Source of the DNA: Eledone cirrhosa
Taxonomy: Eukaryota
Length of the DNA stretch: 64,000 nt
NCBI GenBank assembly: GCA_964016885.1
Contig: OZ024740.1
Location: 192,076,001 to 192,140,000 of the forward strand
Direction of reading: 5' to 3'
The position numbers and the translations under genes were made by a program. The notes below the pieces were generated by a model. That model was given only the letters and a program-made list of their open reading frames with translations, did not search any database and was not told the origin of the DNA. Every line of letters starts with the position of its first letter. Positions within the stretch are counted from its first letter, which is position 1. This document shows positions 8,077 to 63,325 of this stretch, piece by piece.

Positions 8077-11067
8077 GATTAATATTAAGAAAAATTAATA
8101 ATACGAAGAGTTAAAATTTGAGATTTGAAAATTCAAGTATAAAATTCAGTGTGGGATTTCATAGCAGTTTTCATCTAGGTAGCAACAACAGGTTGACTGC
8201 TGTGTCCCTTTCTGGTAGTGAATGAGAAGTTATTTGGGGTGTGGGTTATTTTATAAAGGTCAGATTTAGCAATCGTCAACTGGCCAGCTGCTGGTCAGTG
8301 AGGGGGTGGAAGCAATATACATACACATATCTTCCTGTGGTGGGTAGGATAGTGGAGCGTGATAGAAAGGGATTTAGTGCACTTACACCTATATATACAC
8401 ACATACCTTCATCCACACATACATACATATGCATATACATATACATATATATATATATATATATATACATATACACACATACATACACACACACATACAT
8501 ATACATACACACATACACACACACACATATATACACATACACACACATATATATATATACACACACACACATATATATACATACACATACATCCAGATAC
8601 ACACATACATACACACACACACACACACGCACACACAATACATATATCCACATGCACACACATACACACACACACATATACACATACATACACCCACACA
8701 GAAATGGCCTCCAAACATATATATATATACATACATACACATATATTTTTTTCCATAATATAAGAAGTTAGGACGGTAAAATTAAAATACAAGTCATTCT
8801 GATCACATTGAGTTCTTCATGTAGATTGGGCCCCGCAACCGACAGTGGTGAATTCTGTGTGCGCATATATATATAGATATATGTGTGTGCACGTGCAGGG
8901 TTTGACATGGATGTGTTGGTCACACAAAGGCATGGTCTGTCAACGAATAAACCTGATTCTACAGAATTGGTCTCTGGTCTTTAATAGTAGTGATTCCGTG
9001 CGTATGTGTGTTTATATTTTATGACAATTCTATTGGGGTGATAACCCGTTTAGTTTTGGTTTAAATTTGTTAAGGAATAGATTTTCTTTGTTTATTCTTT
9101 GTTGCTGTGTGAACGAATCTGAGCACTTGTAGAAGGGGAAGATTTTAAAGTTGGGTAGTGTCATTCCTGCGCAGTTCGCAATATGGCTGCTCAAGGGGAT
9201 TTTTCTTGTGTTAGCGTCCCGGATTTGTTGGCGGTGGATGGTCATTATTTTGCGTAATGAGGTGCCCGTCTGTCCTATGTAGTTGTGTTTGCACCCACCG
9301 CAAGTTATTGCGTAAATCAAGTTCTCCGAGTTGCAGGTGAAATTGTTTTTTACTGTAAATGTTTGGCCATCTTTGAATGTAAATGTTTGTCCTTCAGTGA
9401 GGTAGAGGCACGTTCCACAGTTTGTTCTACCACATTTGGTAACTAGGGTTGAGGATTGGTTTGGGTATATTTGGTCCAGTGAGAATGCGTTTAAGTGATT
9501 TGGGTTGTCTTTTACTTTTAAGGATCTTGTGTGTTTCAAGAATAGACTTCATTTTTACATCTTTAAGTAGGATGGGGAGGTTTTTGTGTAGGTGATAAAA
9601 CATTTCGGTATTTCTGGGGTTGAAAGTGGATACATATGGCAGGGTGTTTAGTGTGGTTTTCTGTTTTGGATTGTTAAGTTGATGGGGATTTAGGTGTTTT
9701 GCCCTGTCTATTCCATTGTTGATTATTTCAAGTGGAAAGGCTCTTAAGATAAGGGTGTCTTTTAGTTCCTTTAGTCTTTGCTCCCGTTTAGGTGGATTTA
9801 CAGTAAAAACAATTTCACCTGCAACTCGGAGAACTTGATTTACGCAATAACTTGCGGTGGGTGCAAACACAACTACATAGGACCGACGGGCACCTCATTA
9901 CGCAAAAGAATGACCATCCACCGCCAACAAATCCGGGACGCTAACACAAGAAAAATCCCCTTGAGCAGCCATATTGCGAACTGCGCAGGAATGACACTAC
10001 CCAACTTTAAAATCTTCCCCTTCTACAAGTGCTCAGATTCGTTCGCACAGCAACAAAGAATAAACAAAGAAAATCTATTCCTTAACAAATTTAAACCAAA
10101 ACTAAACGGGTTATCACCCCAATAGAATTGTCATAAAATATAAACACACATACGCACGGAATCACTACTATTAAAGACCAGAGACCAATTCTGTAGAATC
10201 AGGTTTATTCGTTGACAGACCATGCCTTTGTGTGACCAACACATCCATGTTAAACCCTGCACGTGCACACACATATATCTATATATATATGCGCACACAG
10301 AATTCACCACTGTCGGTTGCGGGGCCCAATCTACATGAAGAACTCAATGTGATCAGAATGACTTGTATTTTAATTTCACTGTCCTAACTTCTTATATTAT
10401 GGAAAAAATATATGTGTATGTATGTATATATATATATGTTTGGAGGCCATTTCTCTGTGTGGGTGTATGTATGTGTATATGTGTGTGTGTGTATGTGTGT
10501 GCATGTGGATGTATGTATTGTGTGTGCGTGTGTGTGTGTGTATGTATGTGTGTATCTGGATGTATGTGTATGTATATATATGTGTGTGTATATATATATG
10601 TTTGTGTATGTGTATATATGTGTGTGTGTGTATGTGTGTATGTATATGTATGTGTGTGTATGTATGTGTGTATATGTATATATATATATATATATATGTA
10701 TATGTATATGTATATGTATGTATGTGTGGATGAAGGTATGTGTGTGTATATATAGGTGTAAGTGCACTAAATCCCTTTCTATCACGCTCCACTATCCTAC
10801 CCACCACAGGAAGATATGTGTATGTATATTGCTTCCACCCCCTCACTGACCAGCAGCTGGCCAGTTGACGATTGCTAAATCTGACCTTTATAAAATAACC
10901 CACACCCCAAATAACTTCTCATTCACTACCAGAAAGGGACACAGCAGTCAACCTGTTGTTGCTATCTAGATGAAAACTGCTATGAAATCCCACAATGAAT
11001 TTTATACTTGAATTTTCAAATCTCAAATTTTAACTCTTCGTATTATTAATTTTTCTTAATATTAATC

Positions 11068-11935: not shown

Positions 11936-12890
11936 AAAAGATAGAGGCATGTTTTTAAACACTTATTAACCACATGTTATAACCGTTTGCTTGCGAAGGC
12001 ATATCACGATTATATTTCCTCCAGCCATCAAGTGTCGGTCTTTTCTTTCTCACACTCTTTCAACATTATGTGCCTGAACTTTACACAGCAGACACACTTA
12101 ACACTTTGATTACATTCATTTGTATCTACAACTGGATATACATTTTTTTTTCCTGTAACTTTTCTCTTGTCTGTGTCTGATCCATCCTAGATAGCTTATA
12201 TTACACATCAACGCCGCATCACGTCATAGCCAGAGTTCTATATCAAGAGAATCACTGTGAATACATTCATTTCTTTCTTCAAGTTATTTTTGTTCCCATA
12301 GTTCCTTTTTTTCTGCGTGTCTTTCAACCCCAAATCTTACATTACACGATCATGCCGCAGCCTTTCGCAGTGAAATTTCTACATCAAGTGAAATTGATGA
12401 AGTACTTGCAACTTGTAATCGATTTTCATTTTGTTGCCTGTTTAATGGTTCATTGACAACAGGAATTCAATCAACTTCAAGGTAGGGTCATGCAGTTGAG
12501 TGGATTTTATGAAGACATATTGTTTCTTCGAAATATTTAATTAGACATGCTATGGCACCGCAACTTAAAGATTGTCAATATGATGGCAAAGGTCAATTTT
12601 ATTGGCTTGCAGTGCAGTAGTGATATTGTCATCGTTATATTTAATTAACATTCGTCAGATTTAAATTCAATACTAAGATAAAAAATAAGGACAATTAGTT
12701 ACATTCCGAACCATACACAAATAAAAGGTGTGTGATTCTAATAATATGCTAGCAAGGCAATATATACAATATGTACATTTAGATATAAGATTAGTTTCCG
12801 CTAAAGCTTTTATACACGAGCTCACTCGCTTTCATACACAAACATTCTTCCGACACACGGACACTCGCACACACACAAACACATTGGTAT

Positions 12891-12950
<60 letters not shown>

Positions 12951-13020
12951 TTATTTATTAAAATAACAGATTAAAGTTTAAGCAAAGAATCGCTGCATCT
13001 TCTGAAACTAAAAAAAAATC

Positions 13021-13155
13021 AATCTGTGAACGCAGAAGTAAATATTTCGAAAAACGTTGCAACCGAAGGAAAACGGGAAGACGATACTTTGGTTCGTGAA
13101 GACGTTCCCTGGCAATGAACGGAAAAAAGCGAAGATAATACGTCATTATGTGGGA
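13021..13155. mobile_element. Internal fragment of the Helitron-like element at 34039-35212
   Basis: Reverse-complement match to ~34846-34980. Confidence 0.65.
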
Positions 13156-13962
13156 CGCCGAGAACAATTACACACAAAGACAAAACCACGTATATTGGAT
13201 AAATGAAGTCGTGACTAATATTCTATTTAGGAAAGCGAATGATTCTCGGCTTCAGAGTTAAGAAGAATTGTTTCTACTTTTGGCAAAAGGCCAGCAATTG
13301 CCCAGTACAGAGTTAAGAATAATGTAAATTGGTAGAACGAAAGTGACTGAGGTTATCAAAATCAACAATAATTAAATATATACATACACGCATTCGTATA
13401 ACCCACTATGAATGCATATACAAGCATGTACACATAAACACGCGCACACATACATAAACCCACGTGACACAAGGACCCGCACACATATTAACGTATACAC
13501 TAAATACACATAACAAAATATATATGTGTGTACGTGTGTGTATATGTACATATAATTATATAAACGTATATAAATATACACACGTAAATATGCACGCACA
13601 CACATACCTACAGGTAAATACAGAAATGTACACTAAACGTACATCAACCAAAATACAAAGTGCACATATACACAGACCTTACATAAGTGCAAATACGCAT
13701 ACCCACACAAACATAAAATACACATATACACATAACCATATACACATGTACCCGTATATATAATGTAATATATACACCTATAACAAATACAAGCAAATAT
13801 ACGTACGAGAAATTATAGGCACTTTCACAAAACATACGGGTGAGGCATACTTACCTACACAAATAATTAATGGTACAAACATAAAATATACTTAGCTACC
13901 ACATCAAGACGTAAATTGTCCACGCATTGTTCGTACTATCCGTTAGGGTATAATGTGGGGCT

Positions 13963-14830
13963 CTAATACAGGAAAGTTTTATGTAATTTATGTTTACAAG
14001 CCGCAATTCCCTCAGATTTTTTGTTTAAGATGTGGTCATTGGCGTACAGTATTTCCAGGGCTTTATCGGCGCAAAGATCACATGGTCTTTTATTTCCGTT
14101 ATACGATCTAGCCTAGCTAGGATCACCCAGTGTAACCTACATTGGATGTGGTTGTCTTTTAGACTCCAGATATAAGCTGAAAGTGACGTCATATTCCTTC
14201 TTAGAGGGTTAAGAAAAGAATGGGTGTGCATGTAAAGACGATGCTTCAATCTATTGGCGGTTAACCCTATGTAGGCCCTACTGGATGTGTGTGTTTCGAC
14301 CTTACATTTGTAGACAATGCTACTGGAGAGGCATTTCCGGGATAGATGTCAATCAACCCGATTCCTACAATTACAGTTAGTACTAGCTACAGGGATGCAC
14401 GTATTCCTATGGCTAGGTAATTTAGCTAAATTTGAAGCTGTGATGTTATGTGCAACGTTAGGAGTCGTAGAGTAAGATATTTTAATGGTATTTCTATTAA
14501 AAATATTATTTTTCTTATGTGCTACGGAGAAATACTTCTTAATAAGGTAGAGAAAGATCTTAGCTAATGGTGTGGCCGCCTCCATAGTATATATAATGCG
14601 TCGGGATCTATTTTTCCTTGGTCTAGGCTCGTACTTAGTATGTGCTACCATATCGACAAAAGAGCTCTGAGCAGGATCTTCATTGTAATATGTGGAATGG
14701 TCGGTGAAAATATGCTCGTTTGTAGATAGACGGGAAAGCCTCAAAGAAACGTTTCTTTGTTATGCTACAGGATGATTAGAATTCTTACTTATGTAATTAA
14801 GCGTATCATTCGGCTTTCTATACGAGTAGT
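13963..14830 (-). mobile_element. Decayed Hydra-like Penelope element (RT thumb, CxC linker, GIY-YIG endonuclease)
   Basis: YRKPNDTLNYISKNSNHP...IKISYSTTPNV...NCNCRNRVD*HLSRKCLSSSIVYKCKV...AYIGLTANRLKHR...TSLSAYIWSLKD...(frameshift)CDLC...LNKKSE...CKH. Confidence 0.8.
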
Positions 14831-15327
14831 GCTTGTGACTGTTTGAGTGCGTGTGTGTGCGCGTGCGTGAGTCTGTGTATGCGTGTGTGTGTGTTTGCGT
14901 GTGTGTGTATGCGAGTGTGTGTGTGTGTATATATGTGTGTGTGTGTGTGCATGAGTTTGTGCATGTGTGTAAGTTGAGATAATTACAAAAGTGTTTCCGA
15001 ATTGTTAAACAATTGCAGAACCTACCGAGAAGAATTATGGGATTTGGATGTTAATATACATTAACAGATGGAATATAATATGAGAGGAAAATAGGGGGAA
15101 TTGTAAAACATACTGAGATGTTGTTATTAATGTGGGTGGGGGAATCCAAAGGAAACTAACAGTATAATGTAACGTTTACATAAACGTCGAGAATGGAAAG
15201 TGTTCAAGCTATAGGATTAAGTTTAAAGTACGAGGACAATCTTTGAAGCCATGAAACTAACGTATGCATTTTGATAGTAGTAACACTTGAGAAGTTTAAC
15301 TAATCTATCATATTTAAAGGAATTTGT

Positions 15328-15516
15328 AATAATTGTTTCTATTGTTCGCACAAGGCCAGCAATTACCCAGTACATTACTGGTACTTTATTTTATCGACCC
15401 CGTAAGGATGAAAGGCAGAGTTAACCTCGACGGGATTTGAGCTCAGACCACAACAGATAGTAACTCTTTGCTGCAAAGCACGGCGTCCGACCCTCTACCG
15501 ATACTGCCAATCCACC
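15328..15516 (-). mobile_element. tRNA-derived SINE
   Basis: Reverse complement of the 6326-6510 family. Confidence 0.85.
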
Positions 15517-39378: not shown

Positions 39379-39470
39379 GCCCGCATAGCTCAGTCGGTAG
39401 AGCATCAGACTTTTACGATCTATTCTGTGAAGGTATCTCAGGGTCACGGGTTCAAGTCCCTCTGCGGGCG
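39379..39470 (+). tRNA. trnK-UUU: tRNA-Lys(UUU) with 19-nt intron (39416-39434); probably a variant or pseudogene
   Basis: GCCCGCATAGCTCAGTCGGTAGAGCATCAGACTTTTA[cgatctattctgtgaaggt]ATCTCAGGGTCACGGGTTCAAGTCCCTCTGCGGGCG. Perfect acceptor stem; one anticodon-stem and two T-stem mismatches; no oligo-T terminator. Confidence 0.85.
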
Positions 39471-46800: not shown

Positions 46801-47151
46801 ACATTTTCGGCGTGCAGGAAAAGCGAAGCGAAACGCAAAAATGAGAAATGATACTAGCAAAGTGCACAATAGTTAAAAGCCGGAGCTAGTTGTCACACAT
46901 ACACTAATATGTTTGCCCTCATGTATGTACTTACGCACATATGTTTTCACTATACACATGCAGTTGTACATAGACACATGTACATATGTACATATGTATG
47001 TGCATGTAGACACATTTACACACATCCCCTTACTATATTTCGTTATTTTTATTTTTTATACATTTCTTGTATTATTAATTTTGTTTATGTTTTGCCCGTT
47101 AAACTTTTAGCCTTTCTTGAGGAGATTTTTCAAATGTTTCACTATGTTTTA

Positions 47152-47229
47152 AATTGCCTTATCTGACGAACGAATGCGGACGTTTATTGTATTGGCCTTA
47201 TTCGGGAAACCTCTGGTAATGAGGTAATT
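47152..47229 (+). ncRNA. Type I hammerhead ribozyme motif
   Basis: aattgccttat-CTGACGA-a-cgaat...attcg-g-GAAAC-ctctg-GTA-atgaggtaatt; 11-bp stem I. Confidence 0.8.
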
Positions 47230-47312
47230 ATATTGTATTGTTTATTATACATTAAATATATATATATATAATAATAATAAAATAACAGGAGGCTGGACTT
47301 GAAATGTTTATT

Positions 47313-47370
47313 ATACTATGATCATTTCAATGACCGTGGTCCGTATGAAGTCGGTGATATCATCAGGTAT
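47313..47370 (-). ncRNA. Type I hammerhead ribozyme motif (AUA triplet)
   Basis: atac-CTGATGA-t-atcaccg...cggtcat-t-GAAAT-gatc-ATA-gtat, then AATAAA. Confidence 0.7.
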
Positions 47371-47515
47371 TCGAAATATAATAAATGAATGTAACAGATA
47401 ACATCCATGGGGCTGAAAATCATAGACCCGAGGACGACCGACCATCTAGCATCTTCTATTGCATCAAGATTGACCATACGGAATGACCAACCCTTTGCAG
47501 TGGTGAACCTTCAAA

Positions 47516-47556
<41 letters not shown>

Positions 47557-47660
47557 ATATACATTCAGGGAATGTAACTTGGAGCTACTGTAGGTTCACC
47601 CGGGTGACCACTAGATGTTTAGATTCACTTCAGTGTCAAGTGTAGAGCTATACAGAATGT

Positions 47661-49793
47661 ATTATAGTGAAATATAGCAAGGACGATTGGTTACTCCTTC
47701 ATTACATTTATTGTTTGGTGACGCGCGTTTCGCCACAGATCAGCTCAAGGTTCGATCTGTATCGATCTTACCCGATTCTTTTATCTGCAGCTCGATGGAC
47801 CCCCTTGAAATGCTAGTAGAAAATGAATACATGCTATATGATAAAGTCAGAATTTCATATTTTGGTCAATAAAGTTTGTTTTGATTGGTGGAATTGTTCA
47901 TAGAAATGTGTTTGCTTGTAGCGCATGTGGGGGTGGATGTGATGATAAGATGGTGGTGACGGTCGCAAGCTGAGGTGGGCAGCAGTGTGGGGGTGGTGTA
48001 TTGTCGGTAGACTGATTGGCACACATTCGTTGCTGCTTTGTGTGTGTTGTGTGGTTGTGTTGTTGTTTGGGGTAATGGTGTTTATGATGGTGTGATGGAT
48101 GAGTAGGTGGTGTCAAATTCAATAAGGAGATACATACATAGACACACTTAGTCTGACAAAAACGTTGCATACATACACATATGTATATATATATATATAT
48201 GTGTATAGAGAGAGGGAGAGCCAGTTGAGATGACGTTGTACATAGAGAGAGGAGGAGAGCCAAAGGAGATGGCGTTGTACATATAAATATACTTACACAC
48301 ATACACACACACTTGCATTGTTTAGGGAGGGAAGATATGTGTAGGTGATGTTAATGATGTTAATGATTGTTGAAGTATGTAAATGTGCCTTTTTGGTAGT
48401 GTTGTGTGGGACAAAATATATACAGGTTAAAAAGTAACATAGGGAACCCAGGGCAAACAAGGCTGTGAACGTATAGCGATGTGTGCGGTCTTGTTGGTGG
48501 TGGAGCCAATGGGGTGATATGTTTAATAATATATTTACATGATCGGATGTTACGGTGGTTTACAAGGTAACACCTGACAGAAAGGACAGATATAACACAA
48601 TGGTTCTGAGGGGGAGGGATGATATGTGTTGGTGATGTTAAAGATGTTAATTATGTTAATGATTATTGAAGTATGGAGATGTATCTGGTGGTGGCGATGG
48701 TGGTATGTGCGACAGAATATTTACAGGATCGAATTTTACGAAGGATTGCAGTTTAAAAAACGAGAGAGGGAACAAGGGGAAAAGGGGTTGTGGATGAGGG
48801 ATGGTATACATATAGCGATGTGTATGGTGGTGATGGTGTTGGCGCTGGGATGAAATGTTCGACAATATATTACAGGATCGGATGCTACTATGGTTTACAA
48901 GGTAAAACCTGACAGAGATGACAGATAGAAAACAATGTTACTGAGATAAGGGGTGTATGGCGATGTGTCTTTTGGTGGGGGTGATGGATGCGACATGATA
49001 TTTACAAAATCTGAACTTACAAAGGGTTATATGTTATAAAACAAATGCTCTGAGATGAGGGACGGTGTGGCAAGGCAAAGGTGGTTATCACTATGTTGAG
49101 TCATGGTTAGTGTGCGGCCGTCGGCCGAATGATTGTGCATAGAAGGTGTTCAAACTTGTGTGTCTACAATTTATAATTATGTCAGACCTAGAGTTTATGG
49201 CAGATTGTAATTTAATTATCTCAGCCGCCTCGGCTAGGCATAACCTGCAGTGGTTTCTGTCACTGGGGAGTTGGGCCACGCATCTTTTGACTGACCATAT
49301 GATCTGGAATTCGATGTTCCTGTCTTTGAGGTCCCAGATCAAATCGCCCAGTCTTGTTTGGGATCGTTTAGCCTATGTTTAAAGAAGCTTCTGCGGTTAA
49401 ACCAGCGCTCCTTAAACGTAGTGGAAGTCGCACCAATATATGAGTACTCTTTATTGCCAGCTGTGATATCACACCGGTAAATAATGTTTTTAACGAGGCA
49501 CTCCCCATTTAGTGGTCATTCTACCCGTTTTTTGCAGTTGCAGTTGGGGGTTACCGATTTGTTGGCACGTTGTCGGTTGTTCGCATGCTGTGTGGAGCTG
49601 GCATGTGGGTTGTTCTGGTGTGTTGTGTATGTGGTTTCGTTCTGTTTTGCGGTAGTGGTTTGTTATGGGCTACCATGCGTTTGCGTATTTTTTTCCTATT
49701 AGTGTGTGCTATTGAGCTGATCAGTGGCAAACACGCGTCACCAACCAATTAATGTAATGAAGGAGTAGCCAATCGTCCTTTTTATCTTTTTAC

Positions 49794-49797
<4 letters not shown>
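47661..49797 (-). mobile_element. Decayed Hydra-like Penelope element with inverted terminal pseudo-LTR piece
   Basis: Inverted ends 47661-47748 and 49713-49797. Protein: MVAHNK...NCNCKKRVE*PLNGECLVKNIIYRCDI...YIGATSTTFKERW...IWDLKD...CRLCLAE...INSRSD...CRH. Degenerate hammerhead 47717-47801. Confidence 0.8.
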
Positions 49798-49844
<47 letters not shown>

Positions 49845-49846
<2 letters not shown>

Positions 49847-50145
49847 GTATGTAAAGTATATTTGGCAATATACGGTATATTTATATGTTTAATTAAAAAA
49901 ATGTTGAAGACCTTGCGCTATCATTTTAAAGAAGTGACAAAGAAGGGAGTACGTCGCGCTGAGGAACACCAACAGTGTTAAACAGAATCTGACAGCTTCT
50001 CTCCCTTTGCCGAAAAATGAAGTAAGTCACTACTTTAAAATGATAGCGCAAGGTCTTCAAAATGTTTTGAATTAAACATACGGTATATGGCCAAATATAC
50101 TATACATACATTCATCTATACATCGCTATTTCAGAGCACCAATCC

Positions 50146-51602: not shown

Positions 51603-53860
51603 CTATTGGGGTGATAACCCGTTTAGTTTTGGTTTAAATTTGTTAAGGAATAGATTTTCTTTGTTTATTCTTTGTTGTTGTGTGAAAGAATCTGAGCACT
51701 TGTAGAAGGGGAAGATTTTAAAGTTGGGTAGTGTCATTCCTGTGCAGTTCGCAATATGGCTGCTCAAGGGGATTTTTCTTGTGTTAGCGTCCCGGATTTG
51801 TTGGCGGTTGATGGTCATTCTTTTGCATAATGAGTGCCCGTCTGTCCTATGTAGTTGTGTTTGCACCCACCGCAAGTTATTGCGTAAATCAAGTTCTCCG
51901 AGTTGCAGGTGAAATTGTTTTTTACTGTAAATGTTTGGCCATCATTGAATGTAAATGTTTGTCCTTCAGTGAGGTAGAGGCACGTTCCACAGTTTGTTCT
52001 ACCACATTTGGTAACTGTAGGGTTGAGGATTGGTTTGGGTATTTTTGGTCCAGTGAGAATGCGTTTAAGTGATTTGGGTTGTCTTTTACTTTTAAGGATC
52101 TTGTGTGTTTCAAGAATAGACTTCATTTTTACATCTTTAAGTAGGATGGGGAGGTTTTTGTGTAGGTGATCAAACATTTCGGTATTTCTGGGGTTGAAAG
52201 TGGATACATATGGCAGGGTGTTTAGTGTGGTTTTCTGTTTTGGATTGTTAAGTTGATGGGGATTTAGGTGTTTTGCCCTGTCTATTCCATTGTTGATTAT
52301 TTCAAGTGGAAAGGCTCTTAAGATAAGGGTGTCTTTTAGTTCCTTTAGTCTTTGCTCCCGTTTAGGTGGATCTGATACTATGGTACATATACGTTTGGCC
52401 AAATTGTAAGGAATGTTAAGTTTTGTATGTTTTGGGTGACTTGATGTGAAAAAGAGGTATTGCTTGGAATCTGTGGGTTTATAGAATATATCTGTATCTA
52501 ATTTCCCGTCTATTACAGAGATGAGAATATCCAAGAAGGCTAATTCCTTAGGATTGGATTCCATTGTGAATTGTATGTTATTATCTATGTTGTTTATCAT
52601 GTTTTTAAACGTAGTAAGTGAGTTCATGTCTTCTTGCCATAGGATAAAGCAGTCGTCTAGATATCTTTTCCAATTGGCTTTGAGGTGTGTGTGGAAAGAG
52701 TCTCCAAATAAGAGAAGGGACTGACTGTATATTTGTTGTTCATGGAATCCCATGACTAGGTTGGCATATGTGGGTGCTACTTTCGTGCCCATTGCCGTAC
52801 CTGATACTTGTCTGTATGTTGAACCATTGAATGTGAAGTAGTTATTTTGTAGGATAAAGCGGAGTCCGTCAGTGATAAAATCTGTGTTGATGCGTGTCGG
52901 TATTTCTGATGGGTGTGTGTTAAGCCAGTATTGGACTGCTGTTATTCCATAGTTGTGAGGTATGTTTGTGTAGAGGTTTATTACGTCAAAGGAGACAAGA
53001 ATTGTATTTGCACTTACTGTTTTAGGGAGGTGTTTCAGCATGTCAAGGTCATCTCGTATGTAGCTCTGTATATGTTGTAGAAAGGGTTTCAGTAGGATGT
53101 CCAGAAAGTTGCTAAGTCTGTGGGTTTCACATGTAGGGCCTGCTATAATTGGCCTGAGTTTTAGGTCTTCTGGTGGTGTTAGTTCAATGTAATTGTTGGT
53201 TGAGGTGTCACATGCATCGTTTATGGGTTTACATTTGTGAAGTTTCGGTAAGCCGTAAAAAGAGCTTGTATTGCATTTGAAGTGGCTTATATAGTTAAAC
53301 TCTTTTGTGGTTAAGCTGTTGCGGTATTTATTCAGTAAGGTCAAAAGGTTCCCCATTGTTTTGGTGTGTTTGTAGTTTTCTGTTTTTTCATAGTATGTGT
53401 TGTTTTCTAAAATGTTAAGTGCGAGGGTTCTATAGTAGTCCGTATTCATAATCACAACAGTACTGCCTTTATCGGCTTCTTTGATAGTTATCTCAGGGTT
53501 GTTTCTAAGTGTGAATAATTCTTCCCATTCGTGTGTAGATAGGTTTGATTTCGTGTGTTTATTTGTAATTTTTTCATAGGGAAAGTTGGTGATGTGTTCG
53601 CAGTACGTGTCCAGTGCTTTATTTCTTCCCTTTTGTGGGCAGAAATTGCTTTTATTTCTAACCAGTGATTCGTCTTCAGTGTTGGTGTCGTTGTGGAAGA
53701 ATTCCGTTAGTCGCAGCTTTCGGCAGTATTCCATGATGTCATCCTTCATTTCGGGGAAGTTTGGTTTACGTGGTGTAGGTGTAAATTTCAGGCCCTTACT
53801 TAAAATGTTGATTTGTGTGTTGGTTAGAGGTGTCTTTGAGAGGTTGATTATTTTTGGTTT
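51603..53860 (-). CDS. Penelope-like reverse transcriptase plus GIY-YIG endonuclease (1-nt frameshift near 51835)
   Basis: KIINLS...[79 protein letters not shown]...YIGQT. The copies at 9030 and 9778 show the intact C-terminus. Confidence 0.9.
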
Positions 53861-54490
53861 CTCCTGAGGGGGGGGGCCATCGAGTATCCTGGTATTTCAG
53901 GCTTTTCCCTAAAAAAGGAATGTAGTTTTGTGTGTGATTATATTTTGTTGGTCTGTTGCGTGTGGGTCTGTAGCTTGTTGTTTCATGAGGGTGAATGTGA
54001 TGGTGGGGGTGGTATGTGTTGTGGTTGTTGATGAGCAAGGGTTCTGTTGTTGGTTCATGTGGTCTGGGTGCGTTATTTCTGTGGTACAGAGTGTTGAGGC
54101 TGGGGGGTTGTCTTTTGTTGGATTGAGGGTGATGTCTGGTGTGGTTGTGGGTAAGTTCTGTTGTGATTTCAAGTGGCCTGGGTGGATTTCTTCTGAGGAA
54201 TGTGGTGTGTGTGTTGTGAGTTGGATCTATGTTATTTCGTCGTTGGTTTATGTAGGGGGCATTTCTACGGAAACCTGTGTTGTGGTGGTTGGGTGTGTTT
54301 CTTTTGGTGTAGTTGGCCGTATTTGGTTTGTGTTGGTGGGGGATGTGCCTGTGGTTAGTGTGTGTTGGGTTTGGTGGTGTAAATGTGTCTGTTGTAGTTC
54401 TTGTTATGTTCAAATGCTTTATAAAGGGGTTACCTGTTTGGTGCGTCCTTTTAAAGTCTTCTTCATATTCGAGGAACCAGTTTTCGGATT
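53796..54490 (-). CDS. 5'-truncated upstream ORF (N-terminal region) of the Penelope element, His/Thr/Asn/Pro-rich
   Basis: Open frame [11 protein letters not shown]...NYIPFLGK, overlapping the RT frame out of phase. Confidence 0.5.
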
Positions 54491-58636: not shown

Positions 58637-61600
58637 ATTATTATTATTATTATTATTGTTCTTTGAGCCTCAGTCATTGATGTGATTTGACTGGAAAGTT
58701 TGTTGATATGAATATCAAGCCACTACCTGCAGCCTCAGATATTCAGGACGCATCGCAGGGTTCTTGCTGTTCCCAGCAAGCCTGCCTTTAGAAGTGTTCC
58801 AAAAAGCGGGTCGCGACTAATTTTCTTTAACCATCCTTGAAAACTCTTTGAGATAGTAGCTAGTGCACCTATGACAATCGGGACCACTTTGACTTCATGG
58901 CAGTTCCAAATCCTTTTTACCTCCAACTTTAAGTCCTGGTCTCGGTTAATTTTCTCCCTCTCCTTCTCCTGCACTCTCGTCTCGTGTCGAATGGGCAGGC
59001 TACATCTACAATCAGGCACGATCTTTTTTCCTTGTCCAAAACCAGCAGGTCAGACATATTGTGTTCCAGTTTCCTGTCCGACTGTATCCTAAAATCCCAC
59101 AGCACCTTCACCTGATCGTTTTCTATCACCGACTCTGACTTCTACTCATACCGCTACTCAGATTGTGGTAAATTGTTTACTTTGCATTGGTGCCAGTGGA
59201 TCACCCTCATCACATCATGTCTCCAGCCTTTATAGTGAGTCTGGGCTAGGTGTTTACACTCCGATACAATGTGAGCCACCATCTCCTCTCTCTCCACAGA
59301 TCCTGCTATGTGGGCTAGACTCCTCCTCGGAAATATGGTGCTTCAGCCATTTCGTTTTGAGGGCCTGCTCGTGCGCAGCCATTACCATTCCTTCTGTAGC
59401 TTTCTCAACCAGTTCCATGTCTGTGGATCTCTGAATTCCGTTTTCTCAAAGAAGGTACTATGAAGGGATTTTTCATGAAGGTTGCTCTTTCTCCTTGTTG
59501 TTATTTACTCCTTGGATATCCCCTGGTCTATTGTCCTCTCCTTCAGTACAATTCTGTGCATTGGCTTCTTCTTATAGGTCACGTATTTGTGTAGGTTGTT
59601 TATCTCCATCTGAACACAGTCCTCTATGCTCATAAGACCTCTTCCACCTTCAGATCTCCTTGAGTAGAGTCTATCGACATCACTCCTCTTGTGGAACATG
59701 TTGTAGATAGGCAATAGCTTCCTAGTCTTCCTATCCATTTCTTTTTGTTCAGCAACATTCCATCTCAGAATTCCCGCACTGTACCTAATAATAGACACAG
59801 CTCATGAATTTACTGCACTTATGGCATTCCTGCTGTTCAGATGTGACTTCAATACGCTCCTTATTCTCCGAATGTATTCAGATCTTATCAATTCCTTCGT
59901 TTTTTTGTTATTGATGTCATCAGCCTCTAGAATACCCAAATACTTGTATACTTCTTCAGTGTCAATTTCCTTTATCATCTCACCTGTTGGTACCTGGATT
60001 CCGTTGCTTCTGCTCAATTTACACCTCTTCATCCCTAGGACACCACCCTTACTAATACCAAATTGCATACATATATCATTGCTGAAAATACGGACAGTGT
60101 CAACAAGCACATCAAACTCCTTCTCATTCTTCCCGAAGAGCTTAAGTTCGTCCATGAAGAGGAGGTGATTGATGTTAAGCTCTCACTTTCGCAACTTGTT
60201 TCCTGCTTTCACTTTTCGCAGTATAATGGTCAGGGGCATCAGGGCAATGACAAACAACAGAGGGGACGAGCTATCTCCCTGGAAGATAACTCTCTTGATC
60301 TTCACGCCTCCCAAGGATTCTCCAGCTGATGTTAACTCTGTTTTCCAGGACTTCATACTTTTGCTCAACAACTGTCTGATATTATCTGCCACCTTGAAGA
60401 TCTCTAGGCCTTTGGTGATCCAGTGTGTCTCCGCTTGCGATTTCCTCATTACCATCTTATCAATAAGTAACTGGTCCGTTGTACCATGGGACTTCTTTCG
60501 GCATCCTTTCTGTTCGTCCGGTAACAAGTTGGTTGTGTGGAGGTGATGGTAGATATCCTCAGACACAATGCTTGTCAACAGTTTCCACATTACGGACAGG
60601 CATGTGATAGGTCTATTGTTGGTAATATCATTACCCTTGATGCAGTCTTTCATTACCAGAACTGTGGAACCTTTTGTCAACCACTCCGGTACCTCACCTG
60701 ACATCAAGCAGTCATTGACCAAGGTTGTCAGTTTCGGGTGGAGGGATGTTATATTTTTAATCCAATACCTCTGCACACCATCTGAGCCTGGGGATTTCCA
60801 GTTGGTTAGTTTTTTGGCCTGCACCTTAAGAGTTTCAAGTGTGATACTCAAATCAGTTTGTTGGTGTGCCTGTTTACTAATTCCTTTTGTACTGTCTCAA
60901 TCCACACTGTCTGGTCATTATGTTTAACATCCTGCTCCCATATTCCTCTCCAGAATGTCTTAGTTTGTCCCGCATCATGGATCAAGTTGTTGCCTCTTTC
61001 TTTCCCTTCAAGCTGTCCAAACAGCATCTTCTGGTTGTTGTCGAACATGCGGTTCTCTCTATACTGACTGACTCTGCTCTCGTATCGCCTAATTTTTGCA
61101 CTCTTTGCTATAATGCGTTGCTTCAGTTCCTCTATGATAATATTTAGCCTTTTTCTCCTAGTCTTGTACTTTATTTCCAGTCTATTTTTAGTGTCTATAT
61201 TTTTTAGTGTCCCATTCAGTAGGGACTCAAGCTTTCCAATGTCACTTCTCATATCGCTGATTTGACCATTCAGTCGTTTCTTACACCAAGGTTCTGATCT
61301 TTCTTGTTGTTGTTTCCTCTCGCTTTTATACCAAGTAGTTTCCTCACCGTATTTGCTGTCGCTTTGAGGATATTGTTGCACTGGTGAAGGCTCCTCACCT
61401 CAAGGTATGGGATGACTTTGTTTACCTTAGTTGTTTCTTTTAACTTGTTCCTGTCTACAAATCTTAGGTTCATAAGTTTCCCACTATCATTGTTCATTTC
61501 ATCTACCACTAAGTTTAGGATATTAACCAAATCTTGTCCTAGCCCGTCAGCATTCATCTCCTCAATGGCCGTATATTTGTTTCAGGTATAATAATATAAT

Positions 61601-62090
61601 AATTTCAGCATTCAGATCATTGTTTGCTTCAGATGGTTCCTCCGTTCTCTCAACCTGTTCACCTTCATTTCCCACTGGCTCGTTTGCCTGGTATACTCCA
61701 CTCTCCATTTCCAAGCTAATCTCTCTGCTCAGTTCCTCCAGTTCCAGCTCGCTTATCCGCCCATTAGTTCTTATTACCCGAGCCTGCCCGGACACATTTT
61801 GCTCATCTAATTTAAATAGACCAATCTCGTTCCAGATGTTATGCATCCGTTTCGTATAGCCTTTTTCCTTGGGGTTACTCTTCAGGTAACATTGCATAAC
61901 AGTTATATTCAATTCTTTCGTCCAGTTGATTCTGGTCCCTTTCCTTCTTCTTCCTCCGACACCAGCTTTATTTGGTTGAAAGCCAGGTCCCTGCTGCTGA
62001 GCCAGGGAGCACCTGCTGGGGGAGATTCTGTCACATGACATTCCAGTCTCCACTTCACCGTTATTCGAACTGTTTAGGTTCAACATTGAA
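58631..62090 (-). mobile_element. Decayed R4/Dong-clade non-LTR retrotransposon (RT plus restriction-like endonuclease) with (TAA)n tail
   Basis: N-terminal WTKELN..VMQCY.KS.P..KGY.KRM; RT NWKSPGSDG, RPITCL, EQKGC, IFQGDS.SPLLF, FMDELKL, YKYLG; RLE KVLWDFRIQSDR...D...IVDVACP...K...PIVIGALA. (TAA)n at 58631-58657. Confidence 0.9.
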
Positions 62091-63325
62091 ACCCTTTTCC
62101 TTTAACTCTTTTGTTACCGCATTTCTAAAGAAAGACACTTCATATGGTGTTTCGAACATAACTTAAGGTATCTAAAACAAAATTGTGCTGGAAGGTTTTG
62201 GGATAAAAATATGATTTTCGAGGATTGGTGAATGTATGGTTACATAACCACGGGTGATTTGATCACCCTCGGTGATTTTAGCATGGCCCTATCACGTTGT
62301 AGACGAACATAAATAAACAAACAAACAAATAGGTAAACACCCCAAAAAATAAGCATAAGTTTCATTGTAATGTAATGTTCGAATGTCTGACTAAGTTTGT
62401 TTGCTTGTCTGTCTGTCTGTTTGCTTTTCTTTTCTTTTTTCTTTTCTTACGTTTTTCGTCGCTGTTGTGCAGTTTTGATTTTGATTTTTGATTTTTTGAT
62501 TTTCTGACCGGGTCATCAAATCAGTCTATTTATATCTTTTGATGCCTTCCTCATTTAGTGGGAACACTACGATGCATGTCTTAGCAGGAGGTAGTGGGAG
62601 AGAATATCGGTGGTAGCAATAATGAAGCAGTGGTGCTGGTGATGTGCTAGTAGTACTTAGCAGGATGTAGTGCGAGAGAATAGTGGCGGTAGCGATAATG
62701 AGGCAGTGGTGGTGGTGATGTGATCGTAGTACTGTAGTGATGGTGTTGAAGTTGAAGTACAAATAGAAGTTGAGGTAACTTGACTAGTGTTTTTGGCGTG
62801 GTAGTGGTAATGTTGGTGGTGGTGTTGGTGGTGAAATGATTTGCTTGTCTGTCCACTTAGCCATTTTTCTCTTTTTCGACTATAACATTTCTGATCCAAA
62901 ATTAAATATTAAATTGTGGGGCCCTATGCCGTAATGTGATGTGTTGTCGCTTGCTGAGAGAAAACACTGTAAAATTATACTTCATTTGTAATAAGAATTA
63001 TTCTATCACAGTTGTTTTAAATAAGTAAAAATCAAAAACTTACAGGGGCGATTCCATAACGATATATATCCACCATGTTCGTTTTCTTCCCTATCTTTCT
63101 TCCCTATTTCTTCCTTATTATTATTATTATTATTGTTATTATTATTATTGGTCTAAGCGGACGTATTTTGCTCGCTCACAGTAAGTCGCTTTGTTTGCCT
63201 GTTAAATTTATTTGTTGTTAAATATTTCTTGTTGTGTAAGGGATATAAGCCCTTAGACTTTGCTCCGTGAAGGGGAAAGTATAATATTTGGGCCTTTTGG
63301 ACCAAATATTTGAACTTTTTTTTAC

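Follow-up and report, generated by a model that had tools for sequence, protein, structure and literature searches.

The Hydra clade comprises short Penelope-like retrotransposons (Penelope-like elements, PLEs) with a C-terminal endonuclease (EN+ PLEs; Craig, Yushenova, Rodriguez and Arkhipova, 2021, PMC8557442). According to the sections of that paper and its supplement on which we draw throughout, members of the clade carry a CxCX5C linker in place of CX2-5CxxC, have no CCHH in the endonuclease and insert into (TA)n; they are further marked by possible CxxC and CxH motifs around a conserved E and N, by DKT instead of DKG, and by RWK near the N-terminus (PMC8557442). The unit size is given as '<3 kb', and an octopus member is already listed in the supplement: Hydra-1_Obim from Octopus bimaculoides, with a length of 2507 bp and (TA)n (PMC8557442). 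For PLEs, complex tandem and inverted insertions have also been described (PMC8557442).

In-frame stop codons are part of the family consensus in another group, the selenoprotein-encoding Naiads of clams and spiders (Naiad_Scon, Mmer, Sdum and Smim), which have three or four UGAs per ORF (PMC8557442). The SECIS elements of these PLEs were found with SECISearch3; as described in the sections used here, they are of grade A and lie 1-21 bases downstream of the first non-UGA stop in three families, and overlap the stop in Naiad-Mmer (PMC8557442).

In the stretch of Eledone cirrhosa DNA analysed here (64 kb, hereafter the window), positions 49566-49354 (minus) read ANKSVTPNCNCKKRVE, a stop, and PLNGECLVKNIIYRCDITAGNKEYSYIGATSTTFKERWFNRRSFFKHRLNDPKQ. 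The stop is a TGA (49518-49516) that breaks an otherwise readable linker and GIY-YIG endonuclease frame, and it takes the place of the third Cys of the CxCX5C linker, as judged by its position in the published Hydra alignment, where 9/9 Hydra-clade rows have Cys (PMC8557442, supplementary figure text). An earlier note, made from the sequence alone, had read one frame across this TGA, which the sequence and its minus-strand translation bear out, and had placed the TGA at a linker Cys, which coincides with the published alignment (PMC8557442). The codon almost certainly arose by a neutral C-to-A nonsense mutation that is private to one dead Hydra-clade copy, truncated at its 5' end (the 49-kb copy), whose family encodes Cys (TGC) at this site.

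A tblastn search of the 49-kb stretch against the window returned a second copy at 14378-14232 (minus; the 14-kb copy), which reads NCNCRNRVD, a stop, and HLSRKCL, with 36.7% identity over 49 aa (E 8.5e-10). Its stop, a TGA at 14351-14349, occupies the same column as the TGA at 49518-49516. Predicted protein features support the assignment of both copies as Hydra-like PLEs. The two linkers, CNCKKRVE (49-kb copy) and CNCRNRVD (14-kb copy), each followed by a stop where the relatives have C, agree with the CNCR...C of the published rows (PMC8557442). Relatives of both copies run upstream into RT frames, with GGGLYRDDALLM in the 49-kb family and GLYRDDGLL in the 14-kb family, and the endonuclease is C-terminal. 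By eye, the translations have no Cys from YIG to HCRLCLAEAAEII...N...INCRH in the 49-kb family or to PCDLCAAEALEIL...N...ACKH in the 14-kb family. The 14-kb family has SDKTGNLY and RLRWRAF, and one relative in the 49-kb family (L061) has PADKRGNLY, i.e., DKR rather than DKT. A Pfam scan of both endonuclease frame pieces, with TGA read as C, matched no family at E<=1.

As in the Hydra clade, a GIY-YIG endonuclease lies C-terminal to the RT, the RT of the relatives has YRDD, and (TA)n is found on both flanks; the linker of the 49-kb family, CNCKKRVE[C]PLNGEC, and its E...N...CRH pattern are likewise those of the clade (PMC8557442). The linker and the CxxC/CxH pattern thus fit the Hydra-like endonuclease that the earlier note had recognised at 49091..49660. 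Unlike the clade as described, the 49-kb copy consists of a broken tail end only, L061 has DKR, and no canonical hammerhead was detected (PMC8557442). The 49-kb unit also looks longer than '<3 kb', with ~1.5 kb after the stop codon, and the endonuclease of its family differs in sequence from that of the published Hydra-1_Obim (PMC8557442). For the hammerhead, there was no Rfam family match at E<=10 in 47000-50000 or 12500-15500 and none at the gathering score in the whole window, and a simple regular expression for the hammerhead core found nothing in 47553-49090; either copy could still carry a diverged or non-canonical motif.

Structure and decay of the 49-kb insertion

What is left of the coding region is a C-terminal PLE ORF remnant at 49091..49714 (minus), delimited by translations and by the extent of homology, which comprises the end of the RT-EN linker and the GIY-YIG endonuclease. 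Homology of the 49-kb copy to its relatives starts at ~49714, and in an all-against-all comparison other copies reach >1.4 kb further upstream and have variable 5' ends; the 49-kb copy is without RT because it is 5'-truncated at this point. That all members of the family share one 5' end, as a comparison with the truncated 49-kb copy as query suggested, is rejected as an artefact of this query, since 5' truncation varies in the all-against-all comparison.

The TGA (49516..49518, minus) results from a private C>A at 49516, and among the 30 aligned copies TGA occurs in its column only in the 49-kb copy. A second private nonsense codon lies 49 codons upstream in the same frame: a TAA at 49663..49665 (minus), where relatives have CAA. 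Position 49665 is C in 26/29 relatives and T in the 49-kb copy; this codon falls just outside the stretch from 49091 to 49660 that the earlier note had delimited. Two private 1-base deletions, both identified by reading the alignment at sites where the relatives are split between two bases, shift the frame. One lies in the linker (49668..49669, minus) and is seen as a frame switch and as a gap in the 49-kb copy alone among the rows homologous there; the other lies in the endonuclease between FKHRL and KRSQTRL (49369..49370, minus), where 28/29 relatives have G or C. The frame proposed for 49091..49660 is thus readable across the TGA, but is shifted by the 1-base deletion between 49370 and 49369. 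The endonuclease then resumes in another frame as AKRSQTRLGDLIWDLKDRNIEFQIIW...HCRLCLAEAAEII...INCRH..., up to a TAG at 49093-49091 (minus). The PLE ORF normally ends at this TAG (49091..49093); a reference relative stops at the same place (...TNHNPT).

Two short-read contigs, from runs that are perhaps derived from the assembled sample, bear on these lesions: a 65-nt contig of run X2 (49482-49546, depth 8) covers the TGA without a difference, and a 149-nt contig of run X1 (49317-49465) covers the deletion at 49369/49370 unchanged. Because these contigs show no differences, the TGA and the deletion are not assembly slips, a check that is less independent should the runs stem from the assembled sample. 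In 32/630 alignment columns (5.1%), the 49-kb copy does not share the majority base of its relatives, and C>A is the commonest class of change (8/32 differences). Lacking an RT and carrying a second stop and two frameshifts, the 49-kb copy is dead; the element is of a known kind, a decayed retrotransposon fragment.

The sense arm of the insertion extends from ~49714 to ~47553, with the ORF remnant first and then a long 3' untranslated part of ~1.5 kb (47553..49090, minus), which ends against (TA)n; homology to relatives continues down to ~47518. The flank at this end is a (TA)17.5 (47518..47552), placed by the repeat listing and the aligned 3' ends, and where the 3' end of a relative fell within the fetched sequence, it mostly lay against TA repeats as well. 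On the other side, an inverted arm (49712..49798, plus) stands head-to-head with the truncated sense copy and was recognised by blastn as the reverse complement of the copy's own 3' tail (47679-47748), to which it is 91% identical over 70 bases on the opposite strand. The tails of 16 other loci match it too, with 86-95% identity and again on the opposite strand. The inverted arm adjoins a (TA)25 at 49794..49843.

An inverted 3' tail head-to-head with a 5'-truncated sense copy, with both outer ends at (TA)n, is the two-armed structure known from PLEs, for which complex tandem and inverted insertions are described (PMC8557442), in the target typical of the Hydra clade; compared with these there is nothing unusual in the 49-kb insertion. 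From what is known of PLEs we infer that the element would have been inserted into a (TA)n microsatellite by target-primed reverse transcription, leaving the two arms, inverted tail and truncated body, after which the copy would have decayed until ~5% of its positions were off the column majority of its relatives.

Within the tail of the 49-kb family, one stretch is well conserved and reads GAGCTGATCAGTGGCGAAACGCGCGTCACC in most copies. Two alternative 3' termini, a long and a short one ~100 bases apart and both at TA repeats, occur in the family (loci L002-L030); in the window, the sense arm has the long terminus and the inverted arm the short one. The untranslated region also contains an internal duplication of ~330 bases (~48299-48946, minus), which shows up as offset hits when copies are compared and has units that are 70-77% identical; it was not reported by Tandem Repeats Finder.

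The linker codon in two repeat families

A DNA search of the species' own genome (~3.0 Gb) with the 49-kb copy gave 530 candidates, 40 of which were scored, with 87-92% identity over the query. Among 30 aligned loci, the TGA column contains TGC in 26, TGT in 2, TTC in 1 and TGA in 1, the last being the window copy alone. A genome-wide census of the exact 26-base context, which in this family as in the 14-kb family misses copies altered in the flanking pattern, counted GAATGA... once (the 49-kb copy) against 99 cases of GAATGY... (TGC or TGT). The earlier note had considered a retained or recoded UGA and had itself named Cys codons in close relatives as the sign of a private nonsense mutation; such codons are what was found, in 28/29 relatives and, as TGY, in 99/100 exact-context copies.

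Stops are not peculiar to this codon. The alignment of the 49-kb family (30 copies) contains 32 in-register stops at 17 codon columns, and TGC>TGA changes occur at other Cys codons as well (Cys 2 in 2 copies, Cys 16 in 1 copy). One CGA/TGA column near the C-terminus accounts for 11/32 of the stops. This column, codon 142 of the endonuclease-region alignment, reads CGA in 14, TGA in 11 and GGA in 4 copies; it may reflect two subfamilies with different natural stops, or a hotspot of CpG decay.

The 14-kb copy belongs to a different repeat family. It had been described as clearly divergent from the 49-kb copy, which would argue against a recent duplication of one mutation, and this is upheld: because the copies fall in separate families, with 36.7% identity between them, the two TGAs are not one duplicated mutation and represent independent events. 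The genome search for the 14-kb family yielded 2520 candidates, of which 40 were scored and 30 loci aligned; at the column of its TGA (14349..14351, minus), TGC is present in 28 loci, TGT in 1 and TGA in 1, again the window copy alone, so that this change is private as well. The exact-context census found 11 TGA vs 838 non-TGA copies in the GAT context and 7 vs 555 in the GAC context, which together make 18 TGA vs 1393 non-TGA (18/1411, or 1.3%).

Whether TGA copies group together can be read from trees of 66 rows, which comprised the window copy, 17 other TGA copies, 20 TGC controls and 28/29 of the other search copies (the remaining one lacked the anchor pattern); the six trait bases were masked. 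At least 14 changes are needed to account for the 18 TGA tips, compared with a mean of 16.2 (SD 1.3) for shuffled labels, and 50/500 shuffles gave 14 or fewer. For the 38 census-only rows, 10 changes were needed where shuffling gave 12.9 on average, and 41/500 shuffles came to 10 or fewer. Only one pair of TGA copies is evident, and its members are 23 kb from each other on a single contig. In the tree built by FastTree from the 66 copies, the 14-kb window copy is nested in a GAC-TGC group, which makes GAT and TGA alike private to it. TGA copies form no clade in the trees of 66 and 38 rows, which give no sign of a TGA-founded lineage in the 14-kb family. Across the two families, TGA at the linker Cys codon is thus found in ~1% of copies and marks no lineage.

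Decay, recoding and the shared column

Ordinary decay, rather than a recoded stop, is preferred because the 49-kb copy is truncated and frameshifted and other copies in the genome have a Cys codon; the TGA is most likely decoded as nothing. Decoding as selenocysteine, by means of a SECIS in the 3' UTR as in the Naiad selenoproteins of clams and spiders, is very improbable. The likeness to the Naiads is that, in a Cys motif associated with the endonuclease, a TGA stands in frame in the place of a conserved Cys; the Cys concerned is Zn-knuckle-like, its replacement by TGA is the pattern reported for Naiad selenoproteins (PMC8557442), and the second family in the window has a TGA in the same column. 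However, the Cys codons of 28/29 relatives and 99/100 exact-context copies speak against selenocysteine, as do the scattered TGA copies of the 14-kb family and the state of the 49-kb copy, with its missing RT, its other stop and its two frameshifts. Unlike the consensus UGAs of the Naiads (PMC8557442), TGA is found here in ~1% of copies with TGC as the majority codon, and a SECIS was not found by the Rfam scan. The earlier note had suggested a SECIS search downstream of the TGA; this gave no Rfam match at E<=10 in 47000-50000, nor was there one in 12500-15500, i.e., downstream of either stop. Apart from weak chance matches, among them miRNA look-alikes driven by microsatellites, the E-value scans of these two intervals were empty. 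A related reading, that both window copies are strays of a small lineage, among the thousands of Hydra-clade copies in the genome, with a diverged flanking context, founded by a TGA at the CxCX5C Cys that is read as selenocysteine, is equally improbable; if it were true, this small lineage would represent a TE-borne selenoprotein outside the Naiads. Rare TGA copies of such a kind may have escaped both the genome searches, in which 40 of 530 and 40 of 2520 candidates were scored, and the exact-context censuses.

The earlier note had also raised programmed readthrough, by which RT-only and RT-EN products would be made from one ORF, and editing of the UGA. The position of the stop in the linker between RT and endonuclease would be a sensible split point for the former. 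But the family codon is Cys and the frame is continuous in relatives (e.g., 416 aa in L061), and the idea is inapplicable to the 49-kb copy, where no RT precedes the stop and the frame is broken again by another stop and two frameshifts; readthrough is accordingly rated as still less probable than selenocysteine. Cephalopods edit RNA heavily, and A-to-I editing would turn UGA into UGG (Trp). Such editing finds no support at this locus and ranks as low as readthrough: Trp would displace the Cys that is found at this codon in the relatives and kept in 9/9 published Hydra-clade rows (PMC8557442), the A at 49516 is a recent private mutation, and the frame of the 49-kb copy is broken at three other places. 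The TGA differs from the family majority by a single base, as an assembly or sequencing error would, yet the same bases are present in the X2 contig (49482-49546, depth 8), whose run perhaps stems from the assembled sample, and an error is therefore considered very unlikely.

One observation does count against decay as the preferred reading: two divergent copies within one 64-kb window both have TGA at the same conserved Cys. Given ~1% TGA per family, such a pairing is unlikely in any one window. In one reference copy per family, 51/151 and 55/147 codons of the endonuclease region are one substitution away from a stop; with such a share of stop-prone codons, single stops in two copies would share a column about once in 50 pairs, and when very many windows are scanned, a shared column is unremarkable. 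The match between the 49-kb and the 14-kb TGA is most likely a coincidence of two independent mutations of TGC codons. A stop at a conserved Cys in a high-copy repeat, even one that recurs in a nearby divergent copy, is therefore no evidence of selenocysteine or readthrough, and a recoding question of this kind is settled by counting the codon across the family. On present evidence, and as far as the sections of PMC8557442 used here go, TE-encoded selenoproteins stay confined to the Naiad cases reported there.

Other features of the window

A different PLE is present at 51815-53896 (minus), with a linker of the CX2-5CxxC type, the start of a GIY-YIG domain and an open frame of 693 aa. This Neptune-like ORF matched Pfam RVT_1 (E 3.6e-07), the sole Pfam match obtained, the endonuclease pieces having given none. 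A fragment at 9030-9894 (minus) is related to it, and low-complexity sequence rich in CA/TA surrounds both. At 39379-39470 (plus), a tRNA model matched 92 bases with 45.3 bits; the match is longer than a plain tRNA and is the only one in the window to reach an Rfam gathering score. Open frames of 179-237 aa at 60183-62101 (minus) look, by eye, like the RT and an upstream ORF of a non-LTR retrotransposon.
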